Source: a virus
Taxonomy: Duplodnaviria; Caudoviricetes
Reading direction: 5' to 3' (one strand)
Virus record (IMG/VR): IMGVR_UViG_3300043010_000145
Length of the DNA stretch: 64,000 nt
Position 1 is the first letter of the stretch. Every line of letters starts with the position of its first letter. Below are positions 7,719 through 57,300 of this stretch, in pieces. Under the pieces are notes generated by a model. The model worked only from the letters and a program-made list of their open reading frames with translations, was not told where the DNA came from and did no database searches. Both the position numbers and the translations under genes were made by a program.

Positions 7719-7728
7719 TTAAACAGAC

Positions 7729-7867: not shown

Positions 7868-7928
7868 CTAAAGATGTCAGGCTTGGGAACTAGTATGTCT
7901 TAACTATTCGATTGGAAAACACAGATAT

Positions 7929-7998
7929 GTTGCAAATTTGCGGATTTGTAACAAGGTATACCAAGTTAAGTATGAAAACGGAAAAGCATCTTTCTAGT
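7929..7998 (+). promoter_or_regulatory. CRISPR leader-like segment, copy A
   Basis: GTTGCAAATTTGCGGATTTGTAACAAGGTATACCAAGTTAAGTATGAAAACG conserved with 41671-41722; ends in AGT directly before the repeat in both copies. Confidence 0.65.
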
Positions 7999-8108
7999 AC
8001 TTGCCCCATAAGGGTGGGAATGTTTCTGTATGTATTAGAACTACTTGTTGACCGTTTGCCCCGCACGGGCGGGGATATGTTTCTTGTTTCAACAATCTAT
8101 ACAAGTTG
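7999..8108 (+). CRISPR. Orphan mini-array of two degenerate type I-E-like repeats (7999-8027, 8054-8084) with a 26-nt spacer and a trailing segment
   Basis: ACTTGCCCCATAAGGGTGGGAATGTTTCT and GTTTGCCCCGCACGGGCGGGGATATGTTTCT; CCCCGC-N4-GCGGGG hairpin as in I-E repeats; spacer matches 7210-7235 at 22/26 with an AAT flank. Confidence 0.8.
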
Positions 8109-8136
8109 GCACTCCGCAAATGCGGAGTGTTTTTTC
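8109..8136 (+). terminator. Intrinsic terminator closing cassette A
   Basis: GCACTCCGCA-aa-TGCGGAGTGT followed by a T run. Confidence 0.85.
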
Positions 8137-23600: not shown

Positions 23601-26283
23601 AGAAGTGGAAAGTGCTGCCCAAACAACGGCTAACGCATTAAAAGATGTCGAATTAACTTTTAAAGCAACAGAAACAAAAGCACCAAGCGGGTATAATCTT
23701 CCAGCAAATGCTGCCACAAGTAAAACTGCTACATTGGGTGAGTTGACATATGACAGTACTAAGAAACTATTTAGTACGAATGTTTCAGCAAAAACAGATG
23801 TTACAAATACAGCCACAGATGGTGTAACAGCTAAAACGTCTGCTAGCAGTACATATACTTACGAGATTCCAGTTACATTTACTTTAACAAAGACGGATGA
23901 AGCAAAGAATACACCATTAGCCAATGCAACATATTCGGTTGCTATGAACGTAGTTGACCCAACAGGCACTGTAACTTTACCAAATACATCTTCACAATCT
24001 GTAACAACGAATGATAAAGGTGAAGCAACAGTTACAAACACTTTGACAGGTACATTCCAGTTGGAAACTGGTCAATATAGCTATTATACAGACTACAGTT
24101 CTTTAAAAGGTGAAGCTTTAACAAAAGCAACAGCTGCTATTGATAATAAAACAGTATTTAAAACAAAAGAAGACGCAGATGCAAAAGCGAAACAAGATTT
24201 AGCTGAGTTATTGAAAGCAAAGCAAGAATCTTTAAAGACAATTTCTGTAAGTTATACGGCAACAGAAACAAAAGCACCAGACGGGTATACTTTGAGTTCC
24301 ACAGAGCTTACTACAAATGCAGTAAGTCCTACGGATGTTCAAGTGAACGGTACAAAATTATCTTCCACTATTTCCTTAAACTTAGAAGCAACAGATAAAC
24401 CAATTGAGCCAAGTATTGATGTGATTCAAGCTGTTGCAAATGAGTTTACATATAAAATTCCTCTTGAAACAACTTTGAAGAAAGTAAATGCAGAAACAAA
24501 TGACGGTTTGCAAGGTGCTGAGTTTACAATTCAAAGTAAATTAGGTGAAGATAACTTTACAGATACAGTTACACAAACAACTGACGATAATGGCTTATTA
24601 ACAGATACTCGTGAAATTACAGACACGTTTAAAGTCAAAACTTCTGCTTATTTGTATTATACAAATTATGATTCACTCGTAAGTACTGCCAAGATTGATG
24701 CTGATGCCAAGATAGCTTCCGGCGAAGTTTATAAGACAAAAGCAGACGCTGAGGCAGCAAGAGATGCAGAAATAACAAAGCTTTTAGAAGAATATACAGA
24801 AAAAAATATCACATCGCAATCTGTACAAGTACAAGCAACTGAAATTAAAGCTCCAACAGGTTATGTATTAGATATGACTGCACATGTAAGTGATGAGGTG
24901 AAACCGTCTAATTATACACTTAACGGTTCAACATTAACGTATGAAACAGTTAAATTTGATTTAGGTACAATCAAGAATGTGCAATATCTTGTTGAAAAAG
25001 TAGATAAGTCTAATACTTCCCTAGAAAATGCAGAATTGCAAGTTGTAGATTCCAGTGATACTGTAATTGATTCTTGGGTATCAGCAGCAGAGCCACATGC
25101 TGTTGATGGTTTAAAAGCAAATCAGACATATACTTTAGTGGAAACAAAAGCTCCGAAAGGGTATGCTATTGCAAAGCCTATTGAATTTACAACAGATGCT
25201 GAGGCTACCACAAAAGTAACTATGACAGATGTGAAGATTTCTATTTCTTTATTAGATGAGCATGATATGCCAGTGGAAGGTGCACAGTTACAATTGACTG
25301 ATGAAGATGGGAATGTAATTGCCACTTGGACTGTAACAGACGAACCTTATATTCCAGAAGGTTTAGAAGTTGGTAAAAAATATACTATTACCGAAATCTA
25401 TACACCGGATGGTTTTAATCAAATGCAGCCATATACTTTCACAGTTGGCGAAGAAGATATGAATATTGTTGTAAGAAATGGAGCAACTTTACTTTATAAG
25501 AAATCGCCTGATGAGAAAGAAGTAAAAGGTGCAGAATTGCAGCTTGAATCTAAAGACGGTACAGTAATAGATTCTTGGGTATCTGGGCAAGAGATTGTGC
25601 AATTAACGGATGAGTTGAAGCAAGAAGCAGATACAACAGGTGTTGCATATCTGATTGATAACAAGGAAGATACGCTATCCGTTTCTCTGAATAAAGAGCC
25701 TGATGAATCAAATAATTCTACCACCTTAGCAGATAGCTCTACTACTGTATCTGATATCGTATCTGAAACCACATCGGATACTGCCTTGGCAAGCGAAGAT
25801 GAAGATATTGTTTCTTACAATGAACCAAATAAACAGGCAAGTGATTCTGATGCAAATACTGAGAAAACGATTGTCATGCAGAAAATTAAACTAGCTTACA
25901 CAAAGAATTGCTATACTTTAATTACACAGTATAGTGATGATACTTGGACATATCAGGAAGTTAATGCGTATGGTAATGAAGCTGGGCATAGGGCAAGCCT
26001 TGTTGAAGGTGAAGAGTATTCTTTTGTAGAATCAAAAGCACCAAAAGGATACGAAGAAGCTGCTACGATTACATTTAAAGCAGAAGCTGAACAATCTTAT
26101 ACTTTAACTATGTATGACGAGTATCTCGTGGAAGGTGCAAGGAATAAAGCCGACACTGGTATTATGGGTAATAGTACTGTTATTGCAGTGGCTGCGATTG
26201 CTGCTGTGATATTGTTAGTCCTTATTCTTCTTGTTTTGAAAAAGAAAAAGAGTAAGCATACTTCCGATAATAGTTTGAATTGA
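20614..26283 (+). CDS. Cell-wall-anchored SpaA-repeat adhesin, paralog 2 (1889 aa)
   Basis: Same N-domain (WGDVRTY, GAFYNGEYYDVK, DLDAGEG) and repeats; ADTG, TM and KKKK tail. Confidence 0.9.
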   Translation: MINLGCLKRTFTVFTALFIVLCSSITMLFAEEQESLKKQYHDANTFNKDLENFEWGDVRTYPTETIGWLSNAISKGYIKYTTDAERGGSSIYAKNGNTSNSKCHSFRQEYSNGYFSPQGGHTKATISSKLRVATYDDYNNSPSYKAFLNNFDVIITNHNESRTNTSVESYWAIDNDMWTFFNTSYNDNIYVYYKEGAFYNGEYYDVKAYYWTESTVEDSTDVPIRYSVLSSGSISNGWAGSARNAQAFTQVHCKFYFFKSSDYPNANADNAPANSKAVDFKGVFGITDLDAGEGVKFISGVQSDENVYLYQNTFVKKATESTIHGLFNEFFNTQNSSTEDGVITANDEELNLLYIQAMKGGASSINTTNCPFIATTGFNTTTHKYDLAKSTVPTSISGTDGSYALTYVGSFDNVSSNYLLGNDVESMMLWAEFSSTASEPFEITYFSPSTRCTDIAYKGLTINYKAKVEDNNCLSSSKKTTTDLATDYADYYGTYTLRTLDDTSTDGYTAEKSLLQKVKAEYGDGYTVQGIYTDSTFKTLAPASVSLGETDLTYYVLVTPTYNVTAVTDAGATLLTDASVTGLAETSSTNTKLVEGSTATTVKWEAKKGYIISDVKIEAIPATDTDYYGNSSKIKDVSNTAYANKNYTLTSGSVQICEKDEDNIHRNYKVTISTVAIGSKEDTTSFALEVPVTFELTKTDSANSSLLLEGATYDVTFMKDSKAVTTVQATTDATGKLSATAVVDSYTYSKSFDTTKSYIAGTLPKTYSSTTQQALVQNAISSGNYYANESAALAASKALREEDWLNAIKNRTSNITVKYKETSAPSGYELSSKEKTTSSITVNSYAADSSGVYKPTTTVKLTATDTNTPYSGTRKTVSKSATYNVSVPVSFQVTKKDGSTNDLLSGADFSITGTISSNTTGVNLSLANSTSTGTTDSNGVVTYSTNLTGSFTKNATCYYYDLSSLAGSAKTEAQKEIDSNSNVFATQAEAEAAALKEVESAAQTTANALKDVELTFKATETKAPSGYNLPANAATSKTATLGELTYDSTKKLFSTNVSAKTDVTNTATDGVTAKTSASSTYTYEIPVTFTLTKTDEAKNTPLANATYSVAMNVVDPTGTVTLPNTSSQSVTTNDKGEATVTNTLTGTFQLETGQYSYYTDYSSLKGEALTKATAAIDNKTVFKTKEDADAKAKQDLAELLKAKQESLKTISVSYTATETKAPDGYTLSSTELTTNAVSPTDVQVNGTKLSSTISLNLEATDKPIEPSIDVIQAVANEFTYKIPLETTLKKVNAETNDGLQGAEFTIQSKLGEDNFTDTVTQTTDDNGLLTDTREITDTFKVKTSAYLYYTNYDSLVSTAKIDADAKIASGEVYKTKADAEAARDAEITKLLEEYTEKNITSQSVQVQATEIKAPTGYVLDMTAHVSDEVKPSNYTLNGSTLTYETVKFDLGTIKNVQYLVEKVDKSNTSLENAELQVVDSSDTVIDSWVSAAEPHAVDGLKANQTYTLVETKAPKGYAIAKPIEFTTDAEATTKVTMTDVKISISLLDEHDMPVEGAQLQLTDEDGNVIATWTVTDEPYIPEGLEVGKKYTITEIYTPDGFNQMQPYTFTVGEEDMNIVVRNGATLLYKKSPDEKEVKGAELQLESKDGTVIDSWVSGQEIVQLTDELKQEADTTGVAYLIDNKEDTLSVSLNKEPDESNNSTTLADSSTTVSDIVSETTSDTALASEDEDIVSYNEPNKQASDSDANTEKTIVMQKIKLAYTKNCYTLITQYSDDTWTYQEVNAYGNEAGHRASLVEGEEYSFVESKAPKGYEEAATITFKAEAEQSYTLTMYDEYLVEGARNKADTGIMGNSTVIAVAAIAAVILLVLILLVLKKKKSKHTSDNSLN

Positions 26284-31299: not shown

Positions 31300-34200
31300 T
31301 TGAACAACTTAAAGAAACTGCTTTATACAGTCATAGCTGTATCTATGTCTGTAATGTCTGCCTTACCTACAACCGTAGCAGCTACTGAAACTGAAAGTAG
31401 CTCAGACACTTCCTATGTTTATTGGGACGAAACCCGCCCGCCAACTCTCTATGGTGCTGGTGATATTAAGATTCCCGTAAACCATTTAACTGAATTCAAC
31501 CCACTAGATACTCGTTTTAGGGTATTTGCCACCGATTTTGAGGACGGAGATTTAACTCAATCCATTGCAGTAACAGGTGCAGATACCGTAGATACAACAA
31601 ATATTGGTACATATCATGTAACATACACTGTTACAGACAGTGATGGAAACACTTCAACTCTGAACAGTACGATAGAAGTTGTTGCCGAGGATGAGAATTA
31701 TTATGTGGAAAGAATTCTGTACACACTACCTTCCATGTGGAACTTGCAGAAAGCGGGTACACAGCGAGCCAACTATGGCGACAGACAAATTCTTGGTGTT
31801 ATGTTGCCACAAGGTGTAACAATGACGGTAACGCCACTTGATGTATCAGGCAATTCTTTTACCATTTCCAATCTTGGCAACGATTCAGCCTATGAAAATA
31901 GTCAAAATTTGACTTCTACCGATTCCTTGACTGTACAGAATACCCTAGGCGATTCCGTTCCATTGATTTCTACAAAGGTTTTAGGCCCTAGCGATGCCCC
32001 TACGGATTCTTCTCTGATTGGTACAACTTATAAGATAGCATTAGAATATGGCGATGATGTATTAGAATTGCCATATTACCATAACGGTGATGATGAAACA
32101 GAATTCCGCACAAACTGGAAAGCTTCTCAATATTCTTATGCTGTTGTTGAAGGGCAGAGTGTTATGGTGCTTGTACCATTCGCAGATGAGAAATGGTTAA
32201 CAGGTAAATCTTCTGACAATCGTTTTGCTACATTAGATGAGTTCTTTGAATATTATGACAAAGTACTTACTCGTATGGACGAAATTCTTGGTGTTGAGCT
32301 GAAAACAACTGACCCAGTTCAGCAGAATGTCCGTGTTCAATACCTTGTAAAAGCCAATGTGAACGGCTGGGGTTCTGCTTATTATACAAGCAGCCATGTC
32401 GGAACACATTCAGCAAGTGTTGGTTCTTTCTTCCAAGTCAACTGGGGCGGTTTGCACGAAATAGCCCACGGCTATCAAGGTTCTCTCGGACAAGGTATAA
32501 TGAACCTAGGTGAAACAAGCAACAACATATACGGGTACTATATTCAGTCAGATAAATCTATTTACCCATTTGCTGGCAGCTGGCTTGGTGATTTAGATAA
32601 GATTGAAACATCTAAAAACACGGGCAGATTGCTTGGTAAATCATTGACAGATTGCGAAGTAGATGTCCGATTATACTTCCTTATCAATTTATTTGATTCC
32701 TTTGAAGGTGCAGATACCTATGCAAAAATGAATGCTTGGTACAGACAACAGCTTGTGGACGGACGGTCTATGAACAATGTAGATGCCTATGTGGAAGCTT
32801 TGGCGGATATTTACGGTGTAAACATTACTCCTTATATGGAAGCTTGGGGTATGACAGTTTCCCAATCTCTGCAAGAAGAACTGCTCGAACGAAATCTTAC
32901 CTTGATGTCAATTGCTTATGACACATCAGATTCTTCTGCACAAATGGTACAAGACGGAACAATTCCACACAGATATTCTCTAGCTACAACAAGTGATTAT
33001 GCTACCGTAGGGGAAACAGGTTATTTAACAATTCAATTTGATACAGATACACCAGAAGATGTTATCGGTAAATTTGTAAAGATTTATGACGGAGATACCG
33101 TTGTAGCTATGCAACAGATTGAATCCGTTACAGATACTTTGACATTTTCAAATCTTCCAATTGGAACATATCAGGTAAAGCTGCCAGCAGTAGATAATTA
33201 CGAACAGAACTACGGGTATGCAACAGTTAAGCCAGATAGATATACAACCTATACTGCTACATATACACCAATGGAAGTATTACCAATCAACGATACACCA
33301 GTGTTTATGTTCTATGGTTGGTATGACACTTACGGTTTGAAATTGGCTTTCAATGATGATTATTCTCAAATGACTGTATCATTTGGACAGGCAAACATTA
33401 TTTCCAGCGACCCGTATGCAGTTGTTACATCAGCAGACGGAACGGAAAAGATGCGAGAAGCGATTGCAAGCACAACAAACGGCAATTACTTTGATTTCAA
33501 CAAAGGAACTTACACATTAGACCTTGAAGTTGGTGATGAAATCACTTTATCCTATGCAAGTCAGCACAGAATTATGGTTCGTAATGCTCTTACAAATGAG
33601 AATATTACTTCTTTGAAGCCTACAACAAAAACAACAACTTATGTTGTAACAGAAAATGGTTTAGTGCCAAAAGGTACAGACGAACAAGTTGTTATTGATG
33701 AGATTTACGAACAGACAAAAGTGTATCTGAAAAATATCATTGATACTTATAAAGCAGAAGTTACACAAGATGAATTAGAAAATCGCTACATTAACTTTAA
33801 GGAAAAAGCTAAAGTAGTTGCAGCCTACAATCAGTTGCGAGAAGAAGACCAAGAAGAATATGCCAGCTTTATTCAGCAGATTTTAAATGGTGGACTTCCT
33901 ACTGCCACATATACAGGTATTACAACTTTGGATAATACAAAAACAAGCAAATTGCCAAATTTCCTAGACTATGTTACCGTGCAAGATAACGAGGACGGAA
34001 ATTACCTTGTAAAAGCCGAAGTGAAGCAAAGTATTGATATTAAAACTCCAAAAACTTATCCAGTAATCATTACGGTATACGATTCTGACGGCAATACAGA
34101 TACGATTACATTTGACTTTGTTGTAACAGGAAAGGCAGCTTCTAAGCCTAGTACTTCTACTTCCAATTCAAGTTCTTCAACAAAGCCAAGTACAGATACA

Positions 34201-34773
34201 GAGACTTCCAACACAACTGACAATCGGGTTGAAATCAAAATCCCAGAAAAAACTGAGGACGAAGTAGAAATTACAGAGAAAGGCACTACCTTTGGAAATG
34301 GTAGTGATACAGGTGTACGTATGATGTTACATAAATTTATTCTGCCAGCTGTTACACTTGGTGTAGCTGCTGTATATGCTGCTACGAAATTGGTAAAACG
34401 AGAAGAAGATGAAGACGGTAATGTTACTTACACTATGGAAGTGAAAGTAAAAAATCCGTTTAACGAACCCGTTGATGATGAAGTAGTAGATACAAGAGCA
34501 GAGCATTCTGATGAAGAAGCCGATGCCGAACCAAAGGTAGAAGTAGAAGATAAGCCAGAAGAACAATCCGAAGCAGAGGATAAACCAGAAGCAGAGGAAG
34601 AAGTTCAGACAGAACAGCCAGAAGCAGAGGAAGAAGTTCAGGCAGAACAGCCAGAAGCAGAGACAGAACCAACAACCAAAGCCGATGAATGCGAATGCCC
34701 AACAGTTGAGCTTGTTCTGGACGAAGAAGTAAAAACAGTTATTATTCCATTAGAGGAAGAACCAAAAGAATAA
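31300..34773 (+). CDS. Surface M60/enhancin-like metallopeptidase (mucinase-like) with Ig-like domains
   Basis: Signal peptide; DFEDGDLT...GTYHVTYTVTDSDGN Ig-like domain; WGGLHEIAHGYQ...GETSNN gluzincin motif; SDTG, TM and acidic tail. Confidence 0.85.
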   Translation: MNNLKKLLYTVIAVSMSVMSALPTTVAATETESSSDTSYVYWDETRPPTLYGAGDIKIPVNHLTEFNPLDTRFRVFATDFEDGDLTQSIAVTGADTVDTTNIGTYHVTYTVTDSDGNTSTLNSTIEVVAEDENYYVERILYTLPSMWNLQKAGTQRANYGDRQILGVMLPQGVTMTVTPLDVSGNSFTISNLGNDSAYENSQNLTSTDSLTVQNTLGDSVPLISTKVLGPSDAPTDSSLIGTTYKIALEYGDDVLELPYYHNGDDETEFRTNWKASQYSYAVVEGQSVMVLVPFADEKWLTGKSSDNRFATLDEFFEYYDKVLTRMDEILGVELKTTDPVQQNVRVQYLVKANVNGWGSAYYTSSHVGTHSASVGSFFQVNWGGLHEIAHGYQGSLGQGIMNLGETSNNIYGYYIQSDKSIYPFAGSWLGDLDKIETSKNTGRLLGKSLTDCEVDVRLYFLINLFDSFEGADTYAKMNAWYRQQLVDGRSMNNVDAYVEALADIYGVNITPYMEAWGMTVSQSLQEELLERNLTLMSIAYDTSDSSAQMVQDGTIPHRYSLATTSDYATVGETGYLTIQFDTDTPEDVIGKFVKIYDGDTVVAMQQIESVTDTLTFSNLPIGTYQVKLPAVDNYEQNYGYATVKPDRYTTYTATYTPMEVLPINDTPVFMFYGWYDTYGLKLAFNDDYSQMTVSFGQANIISSDPYAVVTSADGTEKMREAIASTTNGNYFDFNKGTYTLDLEVGDEITLSYASQHRIMVRNALTNENITSLKPTTKTTTYVVTENGLVPKGTDEQVVIDEIYEQTKVYLKNIIDTYKAEVTQDELENRYINFKEKAKVVAAYNQLREEDQEEYASFIQQILNGGLPTATYTGITTLDNTKTSKLPNFLDYVTVQDNEDGNYLVKAEVKQSIDIKTPKTYPVIITVYDSDGNTDTITFDFVVTGKAASKPSTSTSNSSSSTKPSTDTETSNTTDNRVEIKIPEKTEDEVEITEKGTTFGNGSDTGVRMMLHKFILPAVTLGVAAVYAATKLVKREEDEDGNVTYTMEVKVKNPFNEPVDDEVVDTRAEHSDEEADAEPKVEVEDKPEEQSEAEDKPEAEEEVQTEQPEAEEEVQAEQPEAETEPTTKADECECPTVELVLDEEVKTVIIPLEEEPKE

Positions 34774-38452: not shown

Positions 38453-38540
38453 CCCGTCATGGTGGAATCGGCAGACACACCGGACTTAAAATCCGTTGCT
38501 CATTTCGAGCGTTCCAGTTCAAATCTGGATGACGGGACCA
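38453..38540 (+). tRNA. tRNA-Leu (anticodon TAA)
   Basis: Acceptor CCCGTCA/TGACGGG-A-CCA, anticodon loop CTTAAAA, long variable arm GCTC/GAGC, T-arm TCCAG-TTCAAAT-CTGGA. Confidence 0.95.
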
Positions 38541-40553: not shown

Positions 40554-40739
40554 ATGAAATATTTTGTAAATGTACGTATTGACGGATGCTATACGGCTGC
40601 TGTAAATGCAAAAGATATTGACGAAGCTATCGAGAAAGCACAAGAAAAATATGCAAAAAAGAATTTTGGTGAAGATGTTTATTTGCTTGATGGCTTCGAA
40701 GTGATGTCTGTGGAAGACGAAGATGGTAACGAACTCTAA
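40554..40739 (+). CDS. Small acidic protein, family member 1
   Basis: MKYFV..DG....VNA..IDEAIEKA...VEDEDGN shared with 41944 and 42137. Confidence 0.8.
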   Translation: MKYFVNVRIDGCYTAAVNAKDIDEAIEKAQEKYAKKNFGEDVYLLDGFEVMSVEDEDGNEL

Positions 40740-40843
40740 AATAGGAAGAAGTTTGTGTGAATACAAACTTCTTTTCTTTGGGTATTATTTTTGTAATTTA
40801 GTCTATGATAACTATTTTTTGTTTAAAATAGTTAATCTTATGC

Positions 40844-40985
40844 TTGATTTAATTGTATAGATGGGTATAATAATACTCAGAAAGAGGCAAAACAAAATAA
40901 TACATCTCGGTGCCTCTTTTAGTAGTAAAGTTCCTTTCTAAATTCATTACATTGAAAAAGTCATGATTCCCCACATGGCTTTTTC
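40844..40985 (+). ncRNA. Promoter-sRNA-terminator cassette 0
   Basis: TTGATT-16-TATAAT; stem AAAGAGGCA/TGCCTCTTT; TTCCTTTCT; terminator with ATTCCCCA loop. Confidence 0.55.
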
Positions 40986-41073
40986 TTTTGCTTGTTTCTT
41001 CTGTTTGCAAACAGTTATATCTTTTAGAAAGGAATATGTACAAGATATTATTGCTTGTACCATAATATGTAAA

Positions 41074-41274
41074 ATGAAATATAATGTGCAATATCTATTT
41101 AACGGTGAGATAGACCTTGAAGTATCCGCAAATAGCCCAGAAGAAGCCGTGCAGAAGTTCTGGAACAAATTCCCAAAAGCAACTATGGATAATCTAAGCA
41201 TTACAGAAGCAAATGAATTGAATATATGCGATAAAGACTGGAACTTCATTTGCTCCGCTGATTTTGAAGAATAA
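41074..41274 (+). CDS. Small acidic protein, family member 2; its 3' end is matched by the guide at 41757-41807
   Basis: MKYNVQYLFNGEIDLEVSANSPEEAVQK...ICDKDWNFICSADFEE. Confidence 0.8.
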   Translation: MKYNVQYLFNGEIDLEVSANSPEEAVQKFWNKFPKATMDNLSITEANELNICDKDWNFICSADFEE

Positions 41275-41462
41275 TACATTGTATTATCTTGCTCGTGCAA
41301 AGCACGAGCTTTTCTTTTGTTTTAGTATTTTAGAAAACCTTTAGATTTTCCTGAACTATTACTTAGAGAAGAAATTATACAAGGGTGATAAATTCTATCT
41401 AATTTTGATTTTATTGAACTAGTTGAATACTGTGATTAATTGTTAAAGTTTTTAACTTTTAC

Positions 41463-41490
41463 TTGCAGTTCTTCTAATTTGTGGTATACT
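41463..41490 (+). promoter_or_regulatory. Sigma-A promoter of cassette B
   Basis: TTGCAG-16-TATACT with TGTGG extension, homologous to 7690-7718. Confidence 0.75.
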
Positions 41491-41500
41491 GTATTCATAT

Positions 41501-41638
41501 AAGGAATAGCATTATATTATGGTGCTTGATTAGAAACATTTAAGTAAGCAATTTAGAACGGTGGAAAAGCATATATTATTTAAAGCTAGCTAAATGATAT
41601 ATGATGGTAAATGTGCACGTTTACTGTGATACTTCCTT
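41501..41638 (+). ncRNA. Conserved multi-stem structured RNA, copy B
   Basis: AAGGAA...TTCCTT closing stem; hairpins CATATATTATTTA-AAGCTAGC-TAAATGATATATG and GGTAAA-TGTGCACG-TTTACT. Confidence 0.75.
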
Positions 41639-41727
41639 GTAAAGCTACCAGTCAGAAAACTCGAAGGTGTGTTACAAAGTTGCGAATTTGTAACAAGGTG
41701 TACCGAGTTAAATATGGAAACGAAAGT

Positions 41728-41807
41728 GTTTGCCCCGCACGGGCGGGGATGTTTCTGTTTGCGATAAAGACTGGAATTTTATTTTATCCGCTGATTTCAA
41801 TGATTAA
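41728..41807 (+). CRISPR. Solitary type I-E-like repeat (41728-41756) followed by a guide-like segment
   Basis: GTTTGCCCCGCACGGGCGGGGATGTTTCT (29 nt); the next 51 nt match 41224-41274 at 41/51; leader-like segment at 41671-41727. Confidence 0.8.
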
Positions 41808-41826
41808 ATTGCTGCTTGGTATGGTT

Positions 41827-41856
41827 AAAAAGCTCATTTAATGAGCTTTTTCTTTT
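41827..41856 (+). terminator. Intrinsic terminator closing cassette B
   Basis: AAAAAGCTCATT-t-AATGAGCTTTTT. Confidence 0.8.
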
Positions 41857-41943
41857 TGCCTGTCTGTTTGCTTGCAAATAGCTATATCTTTTAGAAAGTG
41901 AGGTTCTGCACCAAAGTAATAATATAGGTGCAATATTCATTGT

Positions 41944-42132
41944 ATGAAATATTATGTAACTTATGTAATAGACGGAAGATTAACCGTTGAAGTGAATGCG
42001 AATAGTTTAGAAGAAGCTGTAACAAAAGCAGATTATGCCTATGATGATGCTAATCTTGGTAAAACAGAAGTTGTTGATTCGTTCTTATCTTTGATAGAAG
42101 ATGAAGATGGGAATTATTTGTTTGAGAGGTGA
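41944..42132 (+). CDS. Small acidic protein, family member 3
   Basis: MKYYVTYVIDGRLTVEVNANSLEEAV...IEDEDGN. Confidence 0.8.
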   Translation: MKYYVTYVIDGRLTVEVNANSLEEAVTKADYAYDDANLGKTEVVDSFLSLIEDEDGNYLFER

Positions 42133-42136
42133 TTGT

Positions 42137-42310
42137 GTGAAATATTCTGTAACTTATGCAGTAACGATTGATGTAGATGCAAATAGTTTAGAAGAAGCTG
42201 TATCTGCTGCTAATTTTGTCTTATATACTCAGCTTACTCCTAGTGAGTTTCTAACTTATTATTTAGCTTCCGTAGAAGATGCTAAGGGAAATTGTATTTA
42301 TGAAAGCTAG
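42137..42310 (+). CDS. Small acidic protein, family member 4
   Basis: GAGGTG RBS, GTG start; KYSVTY...VDANSLEEAV...VEDAKGN. Confidence 0.75.
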   Translation: MKYSVTYAVTIDVDANSLEEAVSAANFVLYTQLTPSEFLTYYLASVEDAKGNCIYES

Positions 42311-46651: not shown

Positions 46652-47545
46652 ATGATTGATTTAGACAAGTATTGGGAAAAACATATCAATTTTCTTTCTA
46701 ACTCTGCACATATAAATTTTTTAGCTAAAAACAAAGATTCCAGTTCTGCACCATTTAATCAGATTTTCTATAAACACGGTTTTGATGTTTCTGTTTATGC
46801 TCAAATCTTCTGGAACTATGCTAATACCACAGACAAGAATTTTCTTGAACTATTTCCAAATAAAACGGAAGAAGATATTCAAAGATTGCTTGTTGCTCTT
46901 TCGTACTTGCACGATATAGGGAAACTGGCAGAAAGCAACCAACAACTCATTTGCAACAACAAGGTAACACCTACACACCCATTTGCAAGTGTTGTTGTTC
47001 TTTCTAATCTTTCCAACATTTCTACACAAGAATTATCTGCAACCAACCTACCAAGCTGGCTTGAACTTATCTATATGCACCACGGCTGGCTGTCCGAAAA
47101 GTTTGAAGCAAGTTTGTCTGCTTATAGCCACTCTGACAAAATTTCTAACCTATTTGCTCTAAGCAAAGAAGCGGTAGAATATATTCGTACTTATTACCGA
47201 ACTTATATTGAAGATTTGCAGAATTTAGCACAAGACTTGGATTTATGGCAAGAACTTGTACTTCTTAATATTTTAATTCTCGCAGACAATATTGCTTCTA
47301 ATCTGGAACAATACAAACTTCCGACAGAGTTCCAATCCGCCACAGATTATCAGACATATCTGCAACAGCAACCAGATTATAATTTCTATGATTTTGCCTA
47401 TGTCTATCGGGTATTACACAACAGTATGGAGCAAGATACTCGTTCCATTATGCAATATTGCAAAGACAATGATATTACAAAGCTGGAAACATTGAGGAAG
47501 CTAGGGTATCAGTTTTGTGCAAAAGAGCTTGAATTAGCATTATAA
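46652..47545 (+). CDS. Stand-alone Cas3''-like HD nuclease domain protein 1
   Basis: LAK...KHGFD...YLHDIGK...HPFAS...MHHG...LADNIAS: motif order of Cas3 HD domains; no helicase part. Confidence 0.75.
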   Translation: MIDLDKYWEKHINFLSNSAHINFLAKNKDSSSAPFNQIFYKHGFDVSVYAQIFWNYANTTDKNFLELFPNKTEEDIQRLLVALSYLHDIGKLAESNQQLICNNKVTPTHPFASVVVLSNLSNISTQELSATNLPSWLELIYMHHGWLSEKFEASLSAYSHSDKISNLFALSKEAVEYIRTYYRTYIEDLQNLAQDLDLWQELVLLNILILADNIASNLEQYKLPTEFQSATDYQTYLQQQPDYNFYDFAYVYRVLHNSMEQDTRSIMQYCKDNDITKLETLRKLGYQFCAKELELAL

Positions 47546-47910: not shown

Positions 47911-48041
47911 CTCCCGCATAGCCTCACCATTTTCTTGCCCTAGTTTCTTTTCAGCCACATTTCCATTTTGCCCGCTGACATTTTGCCCAATATTTAGCAA
48001 AAAACAATATGATTTGTGTAAAACTTAGAAAGGAGAACATC

Positions 48042-49124
48042 ATGAATGAAAAACTTTTCCAAGAACTCTATGCCCAAAGCCAAAGCAGTCAGCACAAAGA
48101 ATATCTTGCCAAAACATCGAGCCTTGCACCATTAGAAAGCAATGGGTACTTCTTTACTCATGCCATGGACTCAGCCATATTTGCAGATATGTTTGTCGAA
48201 GAATTTATTGCCCAATGTAAGCATTACCCAGACCTTCTTGCTTTCATTAAGGCAAATGTCAATCTTGAAGAAATTGTTGTCAGCTATGCAAAACTGCACG
48301 ACTTAGGAAAGTTAGAGAAAAAACTTCAAGCTATGTTTAAAGATAATAATAAAACAGATTCGCTTGATTCACATTCTTTTGGTTCAGCAGTTATCTGCAA
48401 CAATATTCTAAACCACAAACCAATAACACAGTTTGAATTAGAAAAATTAGAAACTTTGCCCGCATTTATTGATATTTTGAGTCTGCATCACCTACAACTT
48501 GTAGATACTTATATTACTAGAATGAGAAATTATGAAATTAATCTAGGTTCAAAAGAACCTAACCACTACATTACCAAAGAAACCGTAAAGTATCTGCAAA
48601 CCTATTTTGCCCGAGATATAGAGAATATGCGAGGGCAAGACAAATCTATTCCGCTTGTTGTTCGTATGCTTGTGTTGAATTTAGTAAAAATGGCCGATGA
48701 TTTAGCCTCGAATAAAGAAAGGTACACAGAGCAGCCGTTCAATTCAGCCAAAGTGTATGCCACTTATTATGATAAACACAAGTATGAATATGGCTATACC
48801 AATATGGCTCATACTTATAATTTGTTGTACCAATCATTAGGCAATAGGCAAGAGAGCATTTTGTATTATTGCAAGCGAAACAACATTAAAGACTTAATTC
48901 CAAAGCGAAAGCTAGGGTATGCATTTGTTCTTAGTGAAGCACAGAGCTTAATCAACTTACGGTATCAGCAAGAGAAAGATAAACAGCAGTACTTAGCGAC
49001 AATCAGCAAACAAGCTGGGACAATACAGATATTACAGAAGTATAAGCAAGATTTAGAGCAAGAGAATGCTCAGCTTAAAGCACAATTGCCTAAGCCAAAG
49101 AAGAAAAGATTCTTTTGGTTCTAA
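48042..49124 (+). CDS. Stand-alone Cas3''-like HD nuclease domain protein 2 with coiled-coil/basic tail
   Basis: LAK...THAMD...LHDLGK...HSFGS...LHH...MADDLAS; shares SIxxYCKxNxI...RKLGY with protein 1. Confidence 0.75.
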   Translation: MNEKLFQELYAQSQSSQHKEYLAKTSSLAPLESNGYFFTHAMDSAIFADMFVEEFIAQCKHYPDLLAFIKANVNLEEIVVSYAKLHDLGKLEKKLQAMFKDNNKTDSLDSHSFGSAVICNNILNHKPITQFELEKLETLPAFIDILSLHHLQLVDTYITRMRNYEINLGSKEPNHYITKETVKYLQTYFARDIENMRGQDKSIPLVVRMLVLNLVKMADDLASNKERYTEQPFNSAKVYATYYDKHKYEYGYTNMAHTYNLLYQSLGNRQESILYYCKRNNIKDLIPKRKLGYAFVLSEAQSLINLRYQQEKDKQQYLATISKQAGTIQILQKYKQDLEQENAQLKAQLPKPKKKRFFWF

Positions 49125-50350: not shown

Positions 50351-50968
50351 ATGAGCAAGAGATACTATTTAGGTGTCTTGTCTGCGGGACTATTGGCAGT
50401 AAGTCTCGGCATAACAGGCAGCCTTGCTTTTAGAACTACGACCAATTCCAAAGAGAATGTATTTCTTATCGGAGATGATTTTGGCACGGGTGATACAAGC
50501 AAGATTACTCTTACTGAACCAAGCTGGAAAGACAGCTCGGCAAATGGTGTGATTGCCAGTCAGAGTATAAAAAAAGACCCAACTGTAACCAACAATTCAG
50601 ACATTCCAGTCTATGCCTTTCTTGTTGTGGAAGAGCCTTTAATTACTTTGAATTCACAATCAACAACTTTATTCAATTATACTTTAAATGACGGTTGGGT
50701 AAAACTATCCAGCTACCAAATTCCAGACATGAAGACAACGGTATATGCTTATGCCAAGGATTCAGCTATGACCGTTCTTGCACCAACGGAAAGTGCTACA
50801 CTCTTTAATAAGATTGTAGCAGCCAGTTCTTTTGGTACAGAAACACAAGTGGCTGGAACAGAGCAGACTTTCACCGTTCGAGCTTATGTCATTCAGTCGC
50901 AAGGATTGAAAAGCACCAATCCTTATGATGTATGGGATATTGTAGAAGAACAAGGAGAAACAGCATGA
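50351..50968 (+). CDS. SipW-dependent TasA/pilin-like subunit
   Basis: Signal ending GSLAF-RTTTNSKENVFLIG (SipW-cognate pattern), KKDPTVTN motif; AGGAGG RBS. Confidence 0.8.
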   Translation: MSKRYYLGVLSAGLLAVSLGITGSLAFRTTTNSKENVFLIGDDFGTGDTSKITLTEPSWKDSSANGVIASQSIKKDPTVTNNSDIPVYAFLVVEEPLITLNSQSTTLFNYTLNDGWVKLSSYQIPDMKTTVYAYAKDSAMTVLAPTESATLFNKIVAASSFGTETQVAGTEQTFTVRAYVIQSQGLKSTNPYDVWDIVEEQGETA

Positions 50969-53628
50969 CGTTGAGAAATTATTTACGAAAGGTTGCTGTT
51001 TCCGTTTCTGTTTTGCTTTCTTCTATTCTTTCTAGTTCTTATTCCGCACCTTTACTTGTTTATGCAAAGGATTCGACAGATATTTCTTTTACGGTAAATA
51101 CTTCTTTTACAGACAGTGAAGGAAATTCCACAGATACCTATACGGGCGGAAAAGTTTATGACCGCACAACTGTTGATGAAGTTGCTTCTGTCACCAACAC
51201 GGGTGCTTCTTGCTATCTGCGAGCAAAGATAAAAACGAACAACTGGGACGATTTTGTTGAAGTTTCCTTCGGTTCTGATTGGGTTGAGAAACCTGACGGG
51301 TATTATTACTACACAAATGTTGTTGCTTCAAAGGAAACTGTAACGATTTTCGATAGTATTACTTTTGCTGACGGTATCGTGAAAGAATCTGATAAGCGGT
51401 TGTCTAAATCAATCACCTTGGGTATTTCCGTAGATGCTGTTGCAGATGCTATTGCTCCCGATTTTAATTCGGATACACCATGGAATGCTTCTCCAAGTGA
51501 AATTGTAACAAAGGAAACGAATAGCTTCTCTACGGGTATTGATTCTAATTTATGGTATGCAGTTGCGGTTGTTCTTGCTTTATTTTCTTTGCTGCTTCTT
51601 GTGTATTTGAATAAGCAAACTATTCTTTCACATTTACAGAATAAAAGCATAATTTTTATTTTGATAGTTCTGCTCGTTTTAATTGGTTCTATTAGTTTAT
51701 TTACCAAAGGAACATATTCTTATATTTTATCTACGGATAAAGTGATTGAAAGAAAAATACAATTTGCTAAGGAATCGTATGCTGCTACTCTTGAACTAGG
51801 TACAAAGTTTAATGCACATATTCCTGATACTGCAACAGAAGTTATATTTACAGATGTAGCTGCTCCGAGTGGTGCTTCTTTAATAGATGTATCTGAGGCA
51901 CAAGATAATTCTATCGTAGCTTGGTTAGCTGACACAACATTTTATGTTTCTACACAAGATTCGGCGGGTAAGATATATGCAAATAAATCTTGCAAAGATA
52001 TGTTCTACAATAAAAAATCTATTGAAACAATACAGTTTTTGAATTTTGATACGAGCAATACAACTAGTATGTTTCAAATGTTCAAGTTTTGTACGAATTT
52101 AAAAAGCATAGATTTATCTTCTTTTGATACAAGAAATGTTACGTCAATGTATTATATGTTTCAAGGTTGTAATGCTTTGAGTAATTTAGATGTTAGTGCT
52201 TTTGATACATCAAAAGTTACAAATATGGCGGGAATGTTTTCATCTTGCAGCAACTTAGAGAGTATTGATTTGTCTAATTTTGATACATCAAAGGTTACAA
52301 CTATGCAGAGTATGTTTCAATATTGTAGTAATATGAAATCATTAGATTGTAGTATGTTTGACACGAGTTCCTTGGAAAGTATATATTATATGTTCTTTGG
52401 CTGCAGTAATCTGGTCTCTTTAAATTTAAATGGATTTAACACAGAAAAAGTGGATTCTTTTGATTCATTGTTTAGGAGTTGTAGCAGTTTAGAAAAGATA
52501 GATGTATCAAGTTTTGATACGAGTAATGCTACCGGATTTGGTTCTATGTTTAGGGAATGCACATCATTAGTTAATCTCAATCTAACAAATTTTGATACAA
52601 GCAAGGCTACGGATTGTTCCTATATGTTTAGTGGTTGTTCAGCTTTAACAGAACTTGATATAACGAATTTTGATGTGAGTAATGTTACGACCTTTGATTA
52701 TATGTTCAAATCTTGTGCAAAGCTATCTAGTTTAAATTTAGAGAACTTTTATACAAGTAAAGCTACTAGTATGACTGCTATGTTTATGAATTGTAGTTCC
52801 ATAAAAGAGTTAGATGTGGAAGCCTTAGACTTGTCTAATGTAACTAATACAGATTATATGTTCCAGAATATGTCAAGTTTAACTACATTATCAATTATTG
52901 ATAGCTATAAAAGTACAAAATCTGTAACCAGTTCAAGCTATATGTTTGACGGTTGTACTTCATTGGTTGGCGGTATAAAATACAATTCCTCGAAAATTGA
53001 TATTACTTACTATAAATCTAGCGGAGGATATCTAACAGTTGCACCTTATAGCTATGCTATTAAATCAGTTGATGTATTTAGGGAACAGCTGACAGACAGC
53101 ATTACGGGTATTGTCTTTACAACAGAGGGTGCTCCATTCTGGGCAATTTGCAGCGGTTTGTCCAGAGATGATTCCGTAATTTGTTGGACAAATCAAAATA
53201 TATTGTATGTTTCTGTAACTCTTGGCTATGATGATATTTATGGTGATGCAGAAGAACATTTCATACATGCACCAACGGATATGACGGGCATGTTTAAGGA
53301 TTTGCCGAATGTTACATCAATAGACTTTACTGGTTTGATTACTGATAACACTACAAATATGAAAGATTTATTTTCAGGCAGTACTGGTTTAACAGAATTA
53401 GACCTTAGTACATTTACATTTGATAAGGTAACGAATACAAGTCGTATGTTTAAAAACTGCTCCAATTTAACAACTATTTACACTTCTTCCAATCCAAACC
53501 TTTCAGCTGTAATCAACAGCACAGATATGTTCGCTGGTTGTACTTCATTAAAAGGTGCAAAAGCTTTTGATGTAGATAAGATTGATTTCAAATACTTTAA
53601 TTTATCCTATTATCTAACACAGAAATAA
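50965..53628 (+). CDS. Pilin-like domain + two TM + BspA-like (DUF285-type) surface repeat protein
   Basis: ATGA overlap; VTNTGASCYLRAK...DGYYYY domain; FSTG + TM; many FDTSxVTxMxxMFxxCxxLxxLDLS repeats. Confidence 0.85.
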   Translation: MTLRNYLRKVAVSVSVLLSSILSSSYSAPLLVYAKDSTDISFTVNTSFTDSEGNSTDTYTGGKVYDRTTVDEVASVTNTGASCYLRAKIKTNNWDDFVEVSFGSDWVEKPDGYYYYTNVVASKETVTIFDSITFADGIVKESDKRLSKSITLGISVDAVADAIAPDFNSDTPWNASPSEIVTKETNSFSTGIDSNLWYAVAVVLALFSLLLLVYLNKQTILSHLQNKSIIFILIVLLVLIGSISLFTKGTYSYILSTDKVIERKIQFAKESYAATLELGTKFNAHIPDTATEVIFTDVAAPSGASLIDVSEAQDNSIVAWLADTTFYVSTQDSAGKIYANKSCKDMFYNKKSIETIQFLNFDTSNTTSMFQMFKFCTNLKSIDLSSFDTRNVTSMYYMFQGCNALSNLDVSAFDTSKVTNMAGMFSSCSNLESIDLSNFDTSKVTTMQSMFQYCSNMKSLDCSMFDTSSLESIYYMFFGCSNLVSLNLNGFNTEKVDSFDSLFRSCSSLEKIDVSSFDTSNATGFGSMFRECTSLVNLNLTNFDTSKATDCSYMFSGCSALTELDITNFDVSNVTTFDYMFKSCAKLSSLNLENFYTSKATSMTAMFMNCSSIKELDVEALDLSNVTNTDYMFQNMSSLTTLSIIDSYKSTKSVTSSSYMFDGCTSLVGGIKYNSSKIDITYYKSSGGYLTVAPYSYAIKSVDVFREQLTDSITGIVFTTEGAPFWAICSGLSRDDSVICWTNQNILYVSVTLGYDDIYGDAEEHFIHAPTDMTGMFKDLPNVTSIDFTGLITDNTTNMKDLFSGSTGLTELDLSTFTFDKVTNTSRMFKNCSNLTTIYTSSNPNLSAVINSTDMFAGCTSLKGAKAFDVDKIDFKYFNLSYYLTQK

Positions 53629-53773
53629 TATAATTAAGCAAATATAAAGCACATTCGGAGAATGTGCTTTCTTTTTATATTTCTTATACTTTTCAAACCC
53701 ACTTTTTCCTCCTACATTCTCTTACATTTTTACAAAAATGTTATACTTTTTGCTTATGCTAGGAGGTAGATAC

Positions 53774-54388
53774 ATGAGCAAAAGACAACATTTAGGCATT
53801 TTGTCTGCGGGGTTACTGGCAGTAAGCCTCGGAATAACAGGCAGCCTAGCTTTTATGACCACTACCCAAGCGAAAGAGAATGTATTTCTCATAGGGGATG
53901 ACTTTGGTACTGGTGATACAAGCAAGATAACTCTCACAGAGCCAAACTGGAAAGAAAGTTTGGCACAAGATGTTGTTGCAAATCAAACACTAAAAAAAGA
54001 CCCGACTGTAACCAACAATTCGGACATACCAGTGTATGCTTTTATTGTTGTAGATGAGCCTTTGATTACAGTTGATTCAAAGACAACACCTTTATTTTCT
54101 TATTCTTTAAATTCAGGCTGGATTGCATTAGCAACAAGTGAAACTACTGACACCAAGACAACAGTATATGCTTATGCAACAAATCTAGCCATGACAACAC
54201 TCTCGCCAACTTCTAGCACAACTTTATTCGATTCCGTTACCACTGCTTCATTCCCTAGTGGTAATGCTGTGCAAGGAACAGACCAGACGATTACAGTAAA
54301 ATCTTATGTTATCCAAACACAAGGCTTGAAGAGTAATTATCCACAAGATGTTTGGCAAGTTGTTCTCGGACAAGGAGTGAATGCATGA
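53774..54388 (+). CDS. SipW-dependent TasA/pilin-like subunit, paralog 2
   Basis: N-terminus nearly identical to that of 50351. Confidence 0.8.
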   Translation: MSKRQHLGILSAGLLAVSLGITGSLAFMTTTQAKENVFLIGDDFGTGDTSKITLTEPNWKESLAQDVVANQTLKKDPTVTNNSDIPVYAFIVVDEPLITVDSKTTPLFSYSLNSGWIALATSETTDTKTTVYAYATNLAMTTLSPTSSTTLFDSVTTASFPSGNAVQGTDQTITVKSYVIQTQGLKSNYPQDVWQVVLGQGVNA

Positions 54389-57300
54389 CTTTAAAGAACC
54401 ATTTACAAGTTTTATTTCTAACCTTATTCACTCTTCTTTCTTCTTTGCTGACACAGCCTACACAGATTTTTGTAGCTGCTGTCGAAGATTCAGACGATAC
54501 AGTTCTGTCATTTACGGTAGACACTTTCTTTACCGATTCCACGGGCAACCAGTCGGAAAGCTACACGGGCGGGAAAGTGTACGATTTATCTACGGTTAGC
54601 GAAGTTGCTTCTGTTACCAATACGGGAAGTTCTTGCTATATACGAGCCAAGGTAACGACAAATGATTGGGACGATTATGTAACATGTTATTTTCTTTCTG
54701 ATTGGATAATGAAACCTGACGGGTATTATTACTACATGAAAGCAGTTCAGCCAAATGAAACTGTAACTATTTTCGAGGGTATTGAATTTGCAGATGGTTT
54801 AGTAAAAGAATCCAATAAAAGATTGTCTAAATCTGTTACGGTTGGCATTTCCGTTGATGCAATCACAGACGAGTTAGAAGCAGATTTCACTTCTGACACA
54901 CCTTGGGCTGCTCTGCTTGCTTATACACCAGAATTACCAGAGGAAGATGCTGATGTTGATACGGATACAGATTCTAACTCGAACTCTAATTCCAATTCTA
55001 ATTCCAACAGCAATACAGCAAATTCTAATAATGCAACTAACAGCAACACTTCCACAAACGGAGCAAATGAAATTGTTCTGCCTGATGATAAGATTGTAAC
55101 CGTTGAAAAGAATGTAGTTTCTACGGGTATCAATACAAATTTAGGTTATCTTGTAGCTTTATTGTTTGCAGCAGCTGCCTTACTTATTCTGATTTATCTG
55201 CACAAAGATTCCTTTACACCGACAATGCAGAATAAGACATTATCTTTATTTGCCTTATTTGCTCTTTTCGGTTCTGCAAGCATTTGTACTGCGGGAACAT
55301 ATTCCTACATTACTTCTACTGACCAAGGGATTGATAATAAAGTTTCTTTTGCCGCTTATGAGCCAAAAGCATTTCTTGAAACTGGGGGTAATTTCAATAG
55401 TCATATTCCGTATGGTACAACGGCTATTGTTTTTACAGATGAATCCGCACCAGCTTCTGCAAGTTTGATAGATGTTTCCGAAGATAAAGATAATTCTGTT
55501 GTTGGCTGGTCTGATAATGATACTTTCTATGTTTCCTCTCAACAAGACGGTGTGATAATTTATGCGAATGAATTATCCGATAATATGTTCTCTTATCAGT
55601 CTGATTTGGAAAGTATTGATTTTACAAATTTAAACACAAAAGATGTTACAACAATGGCGAGTATGTTCGAGGGCTGCAGTAGTCTGCAAAGTCTAGACCT
55701 TTCTAGTTTCGATACTTCCAATGTTACAAATATGTATTATATGTTTGGCGATTGCACGGAGTTGGAAACCTTAGATATTTCTAATTTTGACACTTCCAAG
55801 GTTGAGAATATGTCATATATGTTTTTCAGTTGCGAGGACTTAGGAACACTTGACCTGACACATTTTGATACATCAAATGTAACAACAATGGAACGAATGT
55901 TTCACGATTGTATGAATTTAACATCTTTAAATGTGAAAGGTTGGAATACTTCAAATGTAACTAACATGTCAAATATGTTTGCTTATTGTGAATTGTTGAC
56001 TTCATTGAATGTTTCTAGTTTCGATACAAGCAATGTTACAGATATGAGTTGCATGTTCTATTATGACCGTGGCTTAGAAAAGCTAAATATTACGAATTTT
56101 GATACTTCCAAGGTAACAACAATGCAAGGAATGTTCTATTCTTGTTCAAGTATTAAGACATTAGATGTTTCCAAACTCGAAACAAAGAATGTAACAAGCA
56201 CTAATGCAATGTTCGGGTATATGACTAGCCTGACAACTCTTTATGCAGAGAAAGACCCAACAGTAAGCAATGTAACAAATTCAAAGAATATGTTCTATGG
56301 CGATACTGTTCTGAAAGGAACGATTAAATACAATAGCAGCTATGTTACAGTTTCTTACTATAATTTCAAAGGGTATTTAACGAAGAAAGTATCCACTTAT
56401 GCTTTACTTTCAGGCACAGATTTCGCTGATGCCATTCCATCTTCTGCTACAAAGATTGTATTCACAGACAGTACTGCACCAGCTAGTGCCGAGTTAATTG
56501 ATATGACAGATGGCCAAGACGGTTCTGTTGTAGCTTGGCTTGACGGTACAATATTGTATATTTCCAGTCAAAAGAGCGGGCAAGTCATTTATGCACCAAC
56601 AAATGCGAGTGGAATGTTTGAGAATTTGACAAATATTGTTTCTATTGATTTGAGTAATTTAGATACAACTAAGACAACAAATATGAAAGGAATGTTCTAT
56701 AACTGTTCTTCCTTAACTGATGTGAACACCGATAAATTAGACACAACGAGTGTTACAGATATGTCATTTATGTTCGGTAAATGCTCTGCTTTAACAGATG
56801 TTGATACAAGCAATTTTACAACTTCAAAGGTAACAACTTTCGAGGGTATGTTCAACGGATGTACTTCGCTTACAGATTTAGATTTATCTAACTTTACAAC
56901 GAGTGCTGCTACAAATACTTCATTTATGTTTGCAGCTTGCTCTAACCTTAAAACCGTAGATATTTGTCATTGGAGTTTTGCCAATGTTACAGATTTAAAT
57001 AGTATGTTCCAAGGTGATTCAGCCTTAACTACAATCTATGCAAGCAGAACACCAGATTTGCAGAAAGTTACCGCACACAGCAATATGTTTGTAGGAGATA
57101 CAAATCTTGTTGGCGAAACTTCTTTCGATTCTGCCAACGTTGATGCAAATTATTTTAATTTAAACTCTTATTTGACGAAGCATGATGACGATAGCCTGAC
57201 TTATATTATGAATACTGGTTTATTTGTAAGAGATAATATATCCTCTGATATGACAGAAGTTATCTTTACGGGTATAACGGCACCAGTAGGTGTAGCTTTA

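Follow-up and report, generated by a model that had tools for sequence, protein, structure and literature searches.

The solitary repeat, its gene tail and gene X1

In this study, we analyzed a stretch of 64,000 nt (IMG/VR record IMGVR_UViG_3300043010_000145; hereafter the window) in which a single CRISPR-like repeat of 29 nt, GTTTGCCCCGCACGGGCGGGGATGTTTCT, is joined directly to the in-frame end of a gene copy (Table 1). The repeat belongs to cassette B, one of three homologous CRISPR-like cassettes (A, B and C) that are carried by the same element without matching cas genes. It has a 6-bp GC stem (CCCCGC/GCGGGG), the loop ACGG and the handle ATGTTTCT, the 8-nt tail 3' of the stem being ATGTTTCN, and it thereby shows the form of type I-E repeats (28–29 nt with a GC stem of 6–7 bp, a tetraloop and an 8-nt handle). 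The 28-nt repeat core (41728–41755) has one other match in the window at three or fewer mismatches, at position 8054 in cassette A, where none would be expected by chance. Judged by these features, the cassette repeat is type I-E-like.

The 51 nt that follow the repeat occupy the position of a spacer and correspond to the end of gene X1 (41224–41274), with 41 of 51 positions identical and both sequences in frame to a TAA stop codon. The ten differences fall at positions 1, 3, 21, 24, 29, 30, 42, 43, 45 and 48, and the two translations are VCDKDWNFILSADFND and ICDKDWNFICSADFEE, each ending at the stop codon. For the first 35 nt of the tail, the next-best match in the window reaches 22/35. The homology is sharply bounded, with 5 of 30 positions identical upstream of the junction and 20 of 60 past the stop codon; it begins no more than 3 nt from the end of the repeat, and the X1 counterpart is preceded by AAT (41221–41223). 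No second repeat was found after 41756: the best repeat-like 29-mer in 41757–42100 has 12 of 29 positions in common with the repeat, which is background, and at any offset of 24 to 36 nt there are at most 10 of 29, so that there is no decayed copy either. A preliminary description of this DNA had reported the direct junction with an in-frame tail, the AAT directly before its counterpart, the lack of a second repeat and self mismatches that include positions 1 and 3, and each of these observations was confirmed.

JGI sample 3300043085 and a Logan contig of SRR11793928 both contain the identical junction. Since these contigs come from independent samples, the junction is not an assembly artefact. 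Seven of the ten differences between the tail and X1 are at third codon positions (P = 0.02), and this mostly third-position divergence indicates that the tail derives from a gene copy that was functional until recently.

X1 is one of four tandem paralogues (40554, 41074, 41944 and 42137), and its family is widespread, with 376 cluster representatives at E ≤ 1e-3, both of which identify X1 as a real gene. No Pfam model was found for the family, whose small acidic proteins are possibly anti-defence proteins. The paralogue block (40554–42307) encodes proteins of 57–66 aa with a pI of about 4.1 and the motif V.ANS.EEA, and most of its genes have their own promoter-like block and terminator. Past the X1 terminator, a partial promoter block of the X family was set aside because the similarity was too weak to use.

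Cassette B has an intact promoter and 5' module, a perfect consensus copy of the repeat and a terminator after it, a set of parts which suggests that its RNA is probably made. The promoter was assigned by consensus and was not listed by a simple promoter scan; its block, GTGGTATACT, is common to cassettes A, B and C. It lies ~240 nt upstream of the repeat, with a long structured RNA in between. We considered and rejected the idea that a fusion protein ends in the tail, since the tail frame has upstream stops and its only possible start, an in-frame TTG inside the repeat, would give ~24 aa; no ribosome-binding site was seen for that frame. A 76-aa open reading frame at 41611–41841 is in a different frame from the tail. 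Without a second repeat, cassette B RNA cut by Cas6e would carry the 8-nt handle and the tail, with no 3' hairpin. Such an RNA could be at best an inefficient guide, perhaps a repeat decoy, or it could be inactive.

Table 1. Positions of the cassette parts, of gene X1 and of the type I-C locus. Numbers refer to the window unless a contig (L001, L014) is named.
Feature	Position	Strand	Remarks
Gene X1	41074–41274	+	66-aa acidic protein, pI 4.2; last 51 nt are the resident, mismatched counterpart of the tail
Intrinsic terminator of X1	41291–41319	+	
Cassette B promoter	41463–41490	+	TTGCAG, 16-nt spacer, TGgTATACT (extended −10); by consensus
Cassette B structured 5' RNA module	41499–41640	+	~140 nt; closing helix and three hairpins; conserved in alignments of all three cassettes
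Cassette B leader-like linker	41641–41727	+	one hairpin; present in cassette A, absent from C
Cassette B repeat, type I-E-like	41728–41756	+	single, 29 nt
X1-like gene-copy tail	41757–41807	+	16 codons and TAA; in spacer position, continuing across the expected site of repeat 2
Intrinsic terminator inherited with the gene tail	41827–41858	+	predicted now to terminate the cassette B transcript
Cassette A	7690–8136	+	promoter, 5' module, linker, two repeats, trailer, terminator; same order of parts as B
Cassette A 5' module	7722–7880		
Cassette A repeat 1	7999–8027	+	degenerate; compensatory stem changes read from the sequence
Cassette A spacer	8028–8053	+	26 nt
Cassette A repeat 2	8054–8084	+	
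Resident match of cassette A spacer	7210–7235	−	22/26, first 15 nt perfect; 5' flank AAT
Cassette C	L014 ~4170 to 3810	−	~31 kb left of the window; repeat, 33-nt spacer, repeat, trailer, terminator
Cassette C 5' module	L014 3972–4136	−	
Type I-C locus with two arrays	L001 13782–21539		~64.9–72.7 kb in window numbering

Cassettes A and C and the shared 5' RNA module

The three cassettes have a common layout of a promoter (TTGnnn, 16–17 nt, TGgTATACT), a structured RNA of ~140 nt, one or two repeats and a terminator. A leader-like linker separates the module from the repeats in A and B, whereas the module of cassette C joins its repeat directly. Cassette C was reached by walking contigs that encode the proteins of the window, and no further cassettes were found from about −45 kb to +72 kb. 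The repeats of both A and C form ordinary mini-arrays (repeat-spacer-repeat). The period is 55 nt in A, one step of 6 nt below 61, and 61 nt in C, in keeping with the period of type I-E arrays (~61 nt, from 29 + 32, or steps of 6 nt from this value), and 61 nt is also the period of a related array in a human-gut contig, L020. The preliminary description had proposed that cassette B takes its guide from flanking DNA in place of a normal spacer. That proposal is not supported, because the normal units in A and C mark cassette B as a derived form that has lost repeat 2. The same description had named related loci with normal units and a decayed second repeat as evidence against its reading; A and C come close to this picture, but the second repeat of B is deleted and not decayed.

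In three of three cassettes, the best match of the sequence at the spacer position is an adjoining gene, an adjacency whose chance, roughly estimated, is about 0.02 per cassette. These matches are to coding DNA, in the sense orientation. The cassette B tail matches the 3' end of the upstream co-directional gene X1, a geometry also seen in cassette C, whose spacer has 25 of 33 positions in common with the 3' part of its upstream co-directional gene. The 5' flank is AAT for A and B and AGC for C, so that AAT as a PAM is based on two sites. Seed mismatches in the resident sites fall at positions 1 and 3 for B and at 3, 4 and 6 for C. The match to the neighbour lies in the internal spacer of both A and C, their trailers past the last repeat matching nothing, which argues by analogy that the tail of cassette B corresponds to a spacer now missing its downstream repeat.

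The cassette A spacer corresponds to codons 3–11 of a divergent neighbour gene (6542–7243; 233 aa, no family match), an arrangement that looks like self-targeting or Cascade-mediated repression of that gene. Possibly, cassette B could likewise be a crRNA-like regulator of the CreA, CreR or Cracr type, with Cascade binding a partly matching site and repressing it without cutting. Cassette A fits such a role well: its spacer has 26 nt, the flank is AAT, and at the first codons of the neighbour the 15 PAM-proximal nt match perfectly and the mismatches are distal. In addition, short spacers and terminal units with long 3' tails are found in type I-E Cracr arrays of phages (bioRxiv 10.1101/2024.10.29.618823), and the cassettes resemble these and CreA/CreR in their degenerate repeats, shortened spacers (26 nt in A) and long unprocessed 3' tail. 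However, those RNAs match cas or toxin promoters through a PAM-proximal seed, whereas B has a single match within the element, to the 3' end of a gene and not to its start or promoter, with mismatches at the first and third positions. B thus lacks the PAM-proximal match (9 bp or longer) to a promoter or gene start that is typical of such regulators, and cassette A would have one. The 51-nt homology up to the stop codon also far exceeds any guide, and we consider a regulatory role of this kind very unlikely for cassette B.

The 5' module is the best-conserved part of the cassettes and is predicted to form a closed multi-helix junction, in which 2 of 39 predicted pairs have compensatory changes among the three copies. 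The cassette transcripts fold better than shuffled sequences (z = −3.35 for the whole cassette B transcript, and z = −4.71). No family was identified for the repeat or the 5' module in Rfam at gathering or permissive thresholds, and searches by DNA for relatives of the cassettes in PLSDB, INPHARED, IMG/VR and JGI metagenome contigs gave none. The module is an undescribed structured RNA attached to CRISPR-like repeats. In cassette A, one variable hairpin of the module itself copies the repeat stem (7778–7797).

The conservation of the ~140-nt module, the terminator-like score of the repeat hairpin with its U-rich flank and the lack of cognate cas genes at hand would also fit hairpins that have nothing to do with CRISPR, being terminators or attenuators of a structured non-coding RNA next to leftovers of local duplication. 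That is highly improbable given the periods of 61 and 55 nt, the conserved 8-nt handle and the compensatory stem changes in repeat 1 of cassette A. Moreover, the stem and handle recur in a true array (L020) and in an array beside cas7e-cas5e (L018), and the matches at the spacer position are to coding DNA in the sense orientation.

A long structured scaffold 5' of a hairpin, with flank-derived sequence 3' of it, is likewise the arrangement of a TnpB- or IscB-like omega RNA or of a fused tracr-crRNA that takes its guide from flanking DNA, and the preliminary description had drawn an analogy with TnpB and IS200/605 elements. That analogy is not supported. Omega RNAs adjoin or overlap a TnpB or IscB nuclease gene at a transposon end. 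Around A and B, and in the wider surroundings of C, searches with Pfam, PHROGs, PADLOC and NCBIfam recognised no RuvC-type effector, the genes there encoding methylases, Cas3 HD proteins and proteins of unknown function; the 408-aa open reading frame encodes a C5 DNA methylase. The repeat-spacer-repeat units of A and C, and the absence of part of the 'scaffold' from cassette C, also speak against it. An omega RNA or tracrRNA identity was rejected as a candidate and is, in our estimation, extremely unlikely.

The element and its CRISPR-Cas genes

Contigs identical to the window over the stretches compared were found in several samples, the longest of those examined being 156,966 bp, and the element is therefore at least 157 kb in length. 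Samples with the element are JGI 3300035506, 3300043085 and 3300049150 and the runs SRR11793927 and SRR11793928. Its surface proteins include giant SpaA and DUF285/LRR proteins. The element also encodes orphan N6 and C5 methylases, an SNF2 helicase and TerD/TelA proteins, as well as two ATPases, one FtsK/SpoIIIE-like and one DUF87. No phage hallmarks were recognisable among the proteins scanned, and the two ATPases point to a conjugative element. The element is probably of a large conjugative type, judging from its gene content, and less probably a huge phage. Very large surface-type open reading frames occur at 10957–19860, 20614–26283, 31300–34773 and 50932–59820 in the window, and among them are proteins with SpaA prealbumin-fold repeats and an M60 peptidase that has an Ig-like domain, and DUF285/LRR repeats also occur, of up to 2967 aa. 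There is a tRNA gene at 38453–38537 (Rfam RF00005, 51.6 bits). In contig L009, a C5 DNA methylase gene (926–2887) has matches to Hint/intein-splicing domains, and the block around it also encodes TelA, a PARP-like protein, two Dam-type methylases and an AlwI-type restriction enzyme.

No type I-E cas genes were found in the gene lists over ~118 kb of the element, in which the only cas genes are those of a type I-C system and of two Cas3 HD-only proteins. The type I-C system (cas3, cas5d, csd1, cas7) lies just right of the window and has an unrelated 33-nt repeat, and the possibility that the cassettes are served by it was rejected on that ground. No cas1, cas2 or cas4 was found at the type I-C locus in the stretch seen. 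Its Cas3 (L001 15142–17331) has no Pfam HD match in the first 240 residues. The two stand-alone Cas3 HD (Cas3'') proteins are encoded in tandem (46652–47545 and 48009–49124), 5 kb downstream of cassette B and far from the type I-C operon, and their best PADLOC model is Cas3e.

The Cascade that would use the cassette RNAs presumably belongs to the host. When the repeat pattern was loosened, two relevant relatives were identified in human-gut metagenome contigs, and both have relatives of the ...GCGGGGATGTTTC handle. One of these, L020, is the true array noted above, whose stem and handle are the same as those of the cassette B repeat, and in the other, L018, a similar repeat occurs within a degenerate array immediately after cas7e and cas5e. 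The repeats in L018 (1730–2130) are heterogeneous and degenerate I-E repeats. At 1100–1210 of a separate short contig, L021, a promoter precedes two repeats spaced by 33 nt, of which the first is degenerate and the second has the same handle, ATGTTTC. Among 185,579 species genomes, the exact repeat was found in none, and the loosened pattern gave one single hit that is probably due to chance.

Origin and possible activity of cassette B

Mini-arrays and solitary repeats are already known from mobile elements. Taken with its two sister cassettes, cassette B is most likely a mini-array cassette whose spacer has become fused with target-like DNA and which carries an undescribed structured RNA. More specifically, we give an about even chance to the explanation that it was a mobile-element mini-array aimed at sibling elements, which was fused by spacer-protospacer recombination to an X1-like tail. 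Each cassette is its own transcription unit, with a strong predicted promoter and a spacer that copies a diverged version of the adjoining gene. A type I-E Cascade of the host would process and load the cassette RNAs, and the loaded RNAs would attack sibling elements with the matching allele, the resident allele being mismatched. Cassette B would formerly have held a spacer of ~32 nt, acquired next to an AAT-type PAM from an X1-like gene. Through recombination of this spacer with a gene copy bearing its protospacer, the last 17 codons of the gene and its terminator would have come to follow repeat 1 directly, with the loss of repeat 2, the trailer and the original terminator of the cassette, the product being formally a solitary repeat unit.

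The start of the homology no more than 3 nt from the repeat, with AAT as in cassette A, is what would be expected if spacer acquisition had set the 5' edge of the match. The preliminary description had also proposed that the cassette was joined at the PAM to a gene copy. A join to a gene copy is in agreement with the register of the spacer start, the AAT flank shared with cassette A and the evidence for a functional gene copy, and what drops out is the guide-from-flank design that had been attached to it; as a whole, that interpretation is partly supported.

Two donors of the tail can be envisaged. The donor may have been a downstream paralogue on the same molecule, in which case the event would have been a deletion that also ended any self-targeting, or it may have been the allele of a sibling element, in which case the event would have been an exchange between elements. 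The terminators that follow X1 and the tail are unrelated (20/60), which favours the paralogue donor, and the geometry common to B and C favours the allele donor. An allele ending in the tail peptide was sought by word-indexed protein search, with a degenerate DNA pattern, by tblastn against plasmids and phages, and by an exhaustive search with a profile, and only X1 and distant family members were returned. No sibling element or 'empty' locus was found by these searches or by those with the cassette DNA in PLSDB, INPHARED, IMG/VR and JGI metagenome contigs. We therefore infer the recombination from one genome.

The cassettes have much in common with the mini-arrays of viruses and plasmids (Faure et al. 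2019, as cited in PMC6858448; SPV1 and SPV2, Medvedeva et al. 2019, PMC6858448). Like them, they lack cas genes, have one or two spacers and their own promoter and leader, are carried by a mobile element and are presumed to use host Cas proteins against siblings. The spacers of viral mini-arrays match nearby genes as present in relatives, the copy of the carrier being mutated (PMC6858448), and the spacer matches described here may follow the same rule. Mismatched resident copies were found, whereas a relative with the matching allele was not found in the databases searched, nor was the host array. The one or two repeat-flanked spacers that define a mini-array are present in A and C and not in B, which is a derivative in that it has no second repeat and its spacer runs into a gene tail. 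Further differences are that the carrier is large, bacterial and conjugative-like, with its own type I-C system of another repeat type, and that a conserved structured RNA of ~140 nt precedes the repeats. Recombination between spacer and target is documented by Varble et al. 2019, to the extent cited in PMC8616872, where spacer-target homology is likewise the crossover point that joins repeat-flanked to target-flanking DNA. That work, as cited, concerns host arrays and phages during transduction, whereas here mobile elements would be involved and the event is read from a single junction.

One element thus shows normal mini-arrays beside a repeat that is fused in spacer register to a target-like gene tail. 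These side-by-side forms suggest that spacer-target recombination shapes the cassettes and can convert a mini-array into a solitary repeat.

The fused form could still have an activity of its own, and one that must be weighed is that of a Racr-type RNA anti-CRISPR, with cassette B as a solitary repeat unit (SRU) acting as a decoy against a host type I-E system and the tail being passenger DNA of an X1 paralogue into which the unit landed, in a register that is coincidental. Cassette B agrees with the definition of an SRU (Camara-Wilpert et al. 2023, PMC10651486): its one repeat is intergenic, lies behind a promoter on a mobile element, has no partial copy within 100 bp and is accompanied by no cognate cas genes. 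Type I-E Racrs have been experimentally validated (PMC10651486). The repeat is a perfect consensus copy behind an intact promoter and 5' module, and the setting of the cassette resembles an anti-defence island, where orphan N6 and C5 methylases occur together with tandem small acidic proteins and stand-alone Cas3 HD proteins. However, B is the sister of two spacer-bearing mini-arrays, its promoter is separated from the repeat by ~240 nt of structured RNA in contrast to the compact SRUs described, and this reading leaves unexplained both the AAT flank and the register in which the repeat is joined to target-like coding DNA. We therefore think a Racr role unlikely, though far from negligible, and treat inhibition by cassette B as a candidate activity. 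It concerns present function and is compatible with an origin of cassette B as a recombination scar.

Free-standing homing endonucleases of T-even phages bring about intronless homing, in which a selfish cassette attacks a site in its relatives and has a resistant variant of that site next to it. The cassettes described here would similarly adjoin resistant variants of their sites, and a homing role is possible. In one form, cassette B would be a working RNA-guided module for homing or exclusion directed against an uninterrupted X1-type allele, with X1 protected by its seed mismatches and the cassette copied when the sibling is repaired, which we regard as rather improbable. The geometry of intronless homing is seen in all three cassettes and in at least one type I-C spacer (L001 14438–14471), which has 27 of 34 positions in common with the gene immediately left of its array (L001 13392–13781), the mismatches being PAM-proximal. 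The resident sites are seed-mismatched for B and C, and Cascade of E. coli can reportedly function without Cas6e and the 3' hairpin (Semenova et al. 2015). On the other hand, the target allele is absent from every database searched, no repeat 2 is present to set the 3' end of the crRNA, and no cognate Cascade or Cas3 is known. In addition, the resident site of cassette A, with an intact flank and a perfect 15-nt seed, does not agree with self-protection. The proximity of targets to mini-arrays has also been reported before, and its reason was stated to be unclear (PMC6858448).

In a broader form, all the cassettes would be RNA-guided analogues of intronless homing and cassette B a repair fossil, in which the spacer served as the right-hand homology arm and the 5' RNA as an accessory part, an extension to which we assign a slender chance. 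Each cassette would then aim a borrowed type I-E Cascade-Cas3 at the sensitive allele of sibling elements and be spread through repair. Unlike homing in T-even phages, specificity would come from an RNA and a borrowed Cascade, and cutting and co-conversion are hypothetical here. If homing were nevertheless correct, it would also explain how solitary repeat units arise from mini-arrays, and the ~140-nt 5' RNA would be a previously undescribed accessory part. The locus represents a concrete and cheap test system for RNA-guided exclusion or homing between plasmids.

A minor observation concerns the junction in SRR11793928, where Logan contig L004 starts exactly at the second base of the repeat (L004 1–30, window 41729 onward). 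No 31-mer is in common with the other known cassettes, which may point to a variant in that sample or to another context upstream of the repeat.
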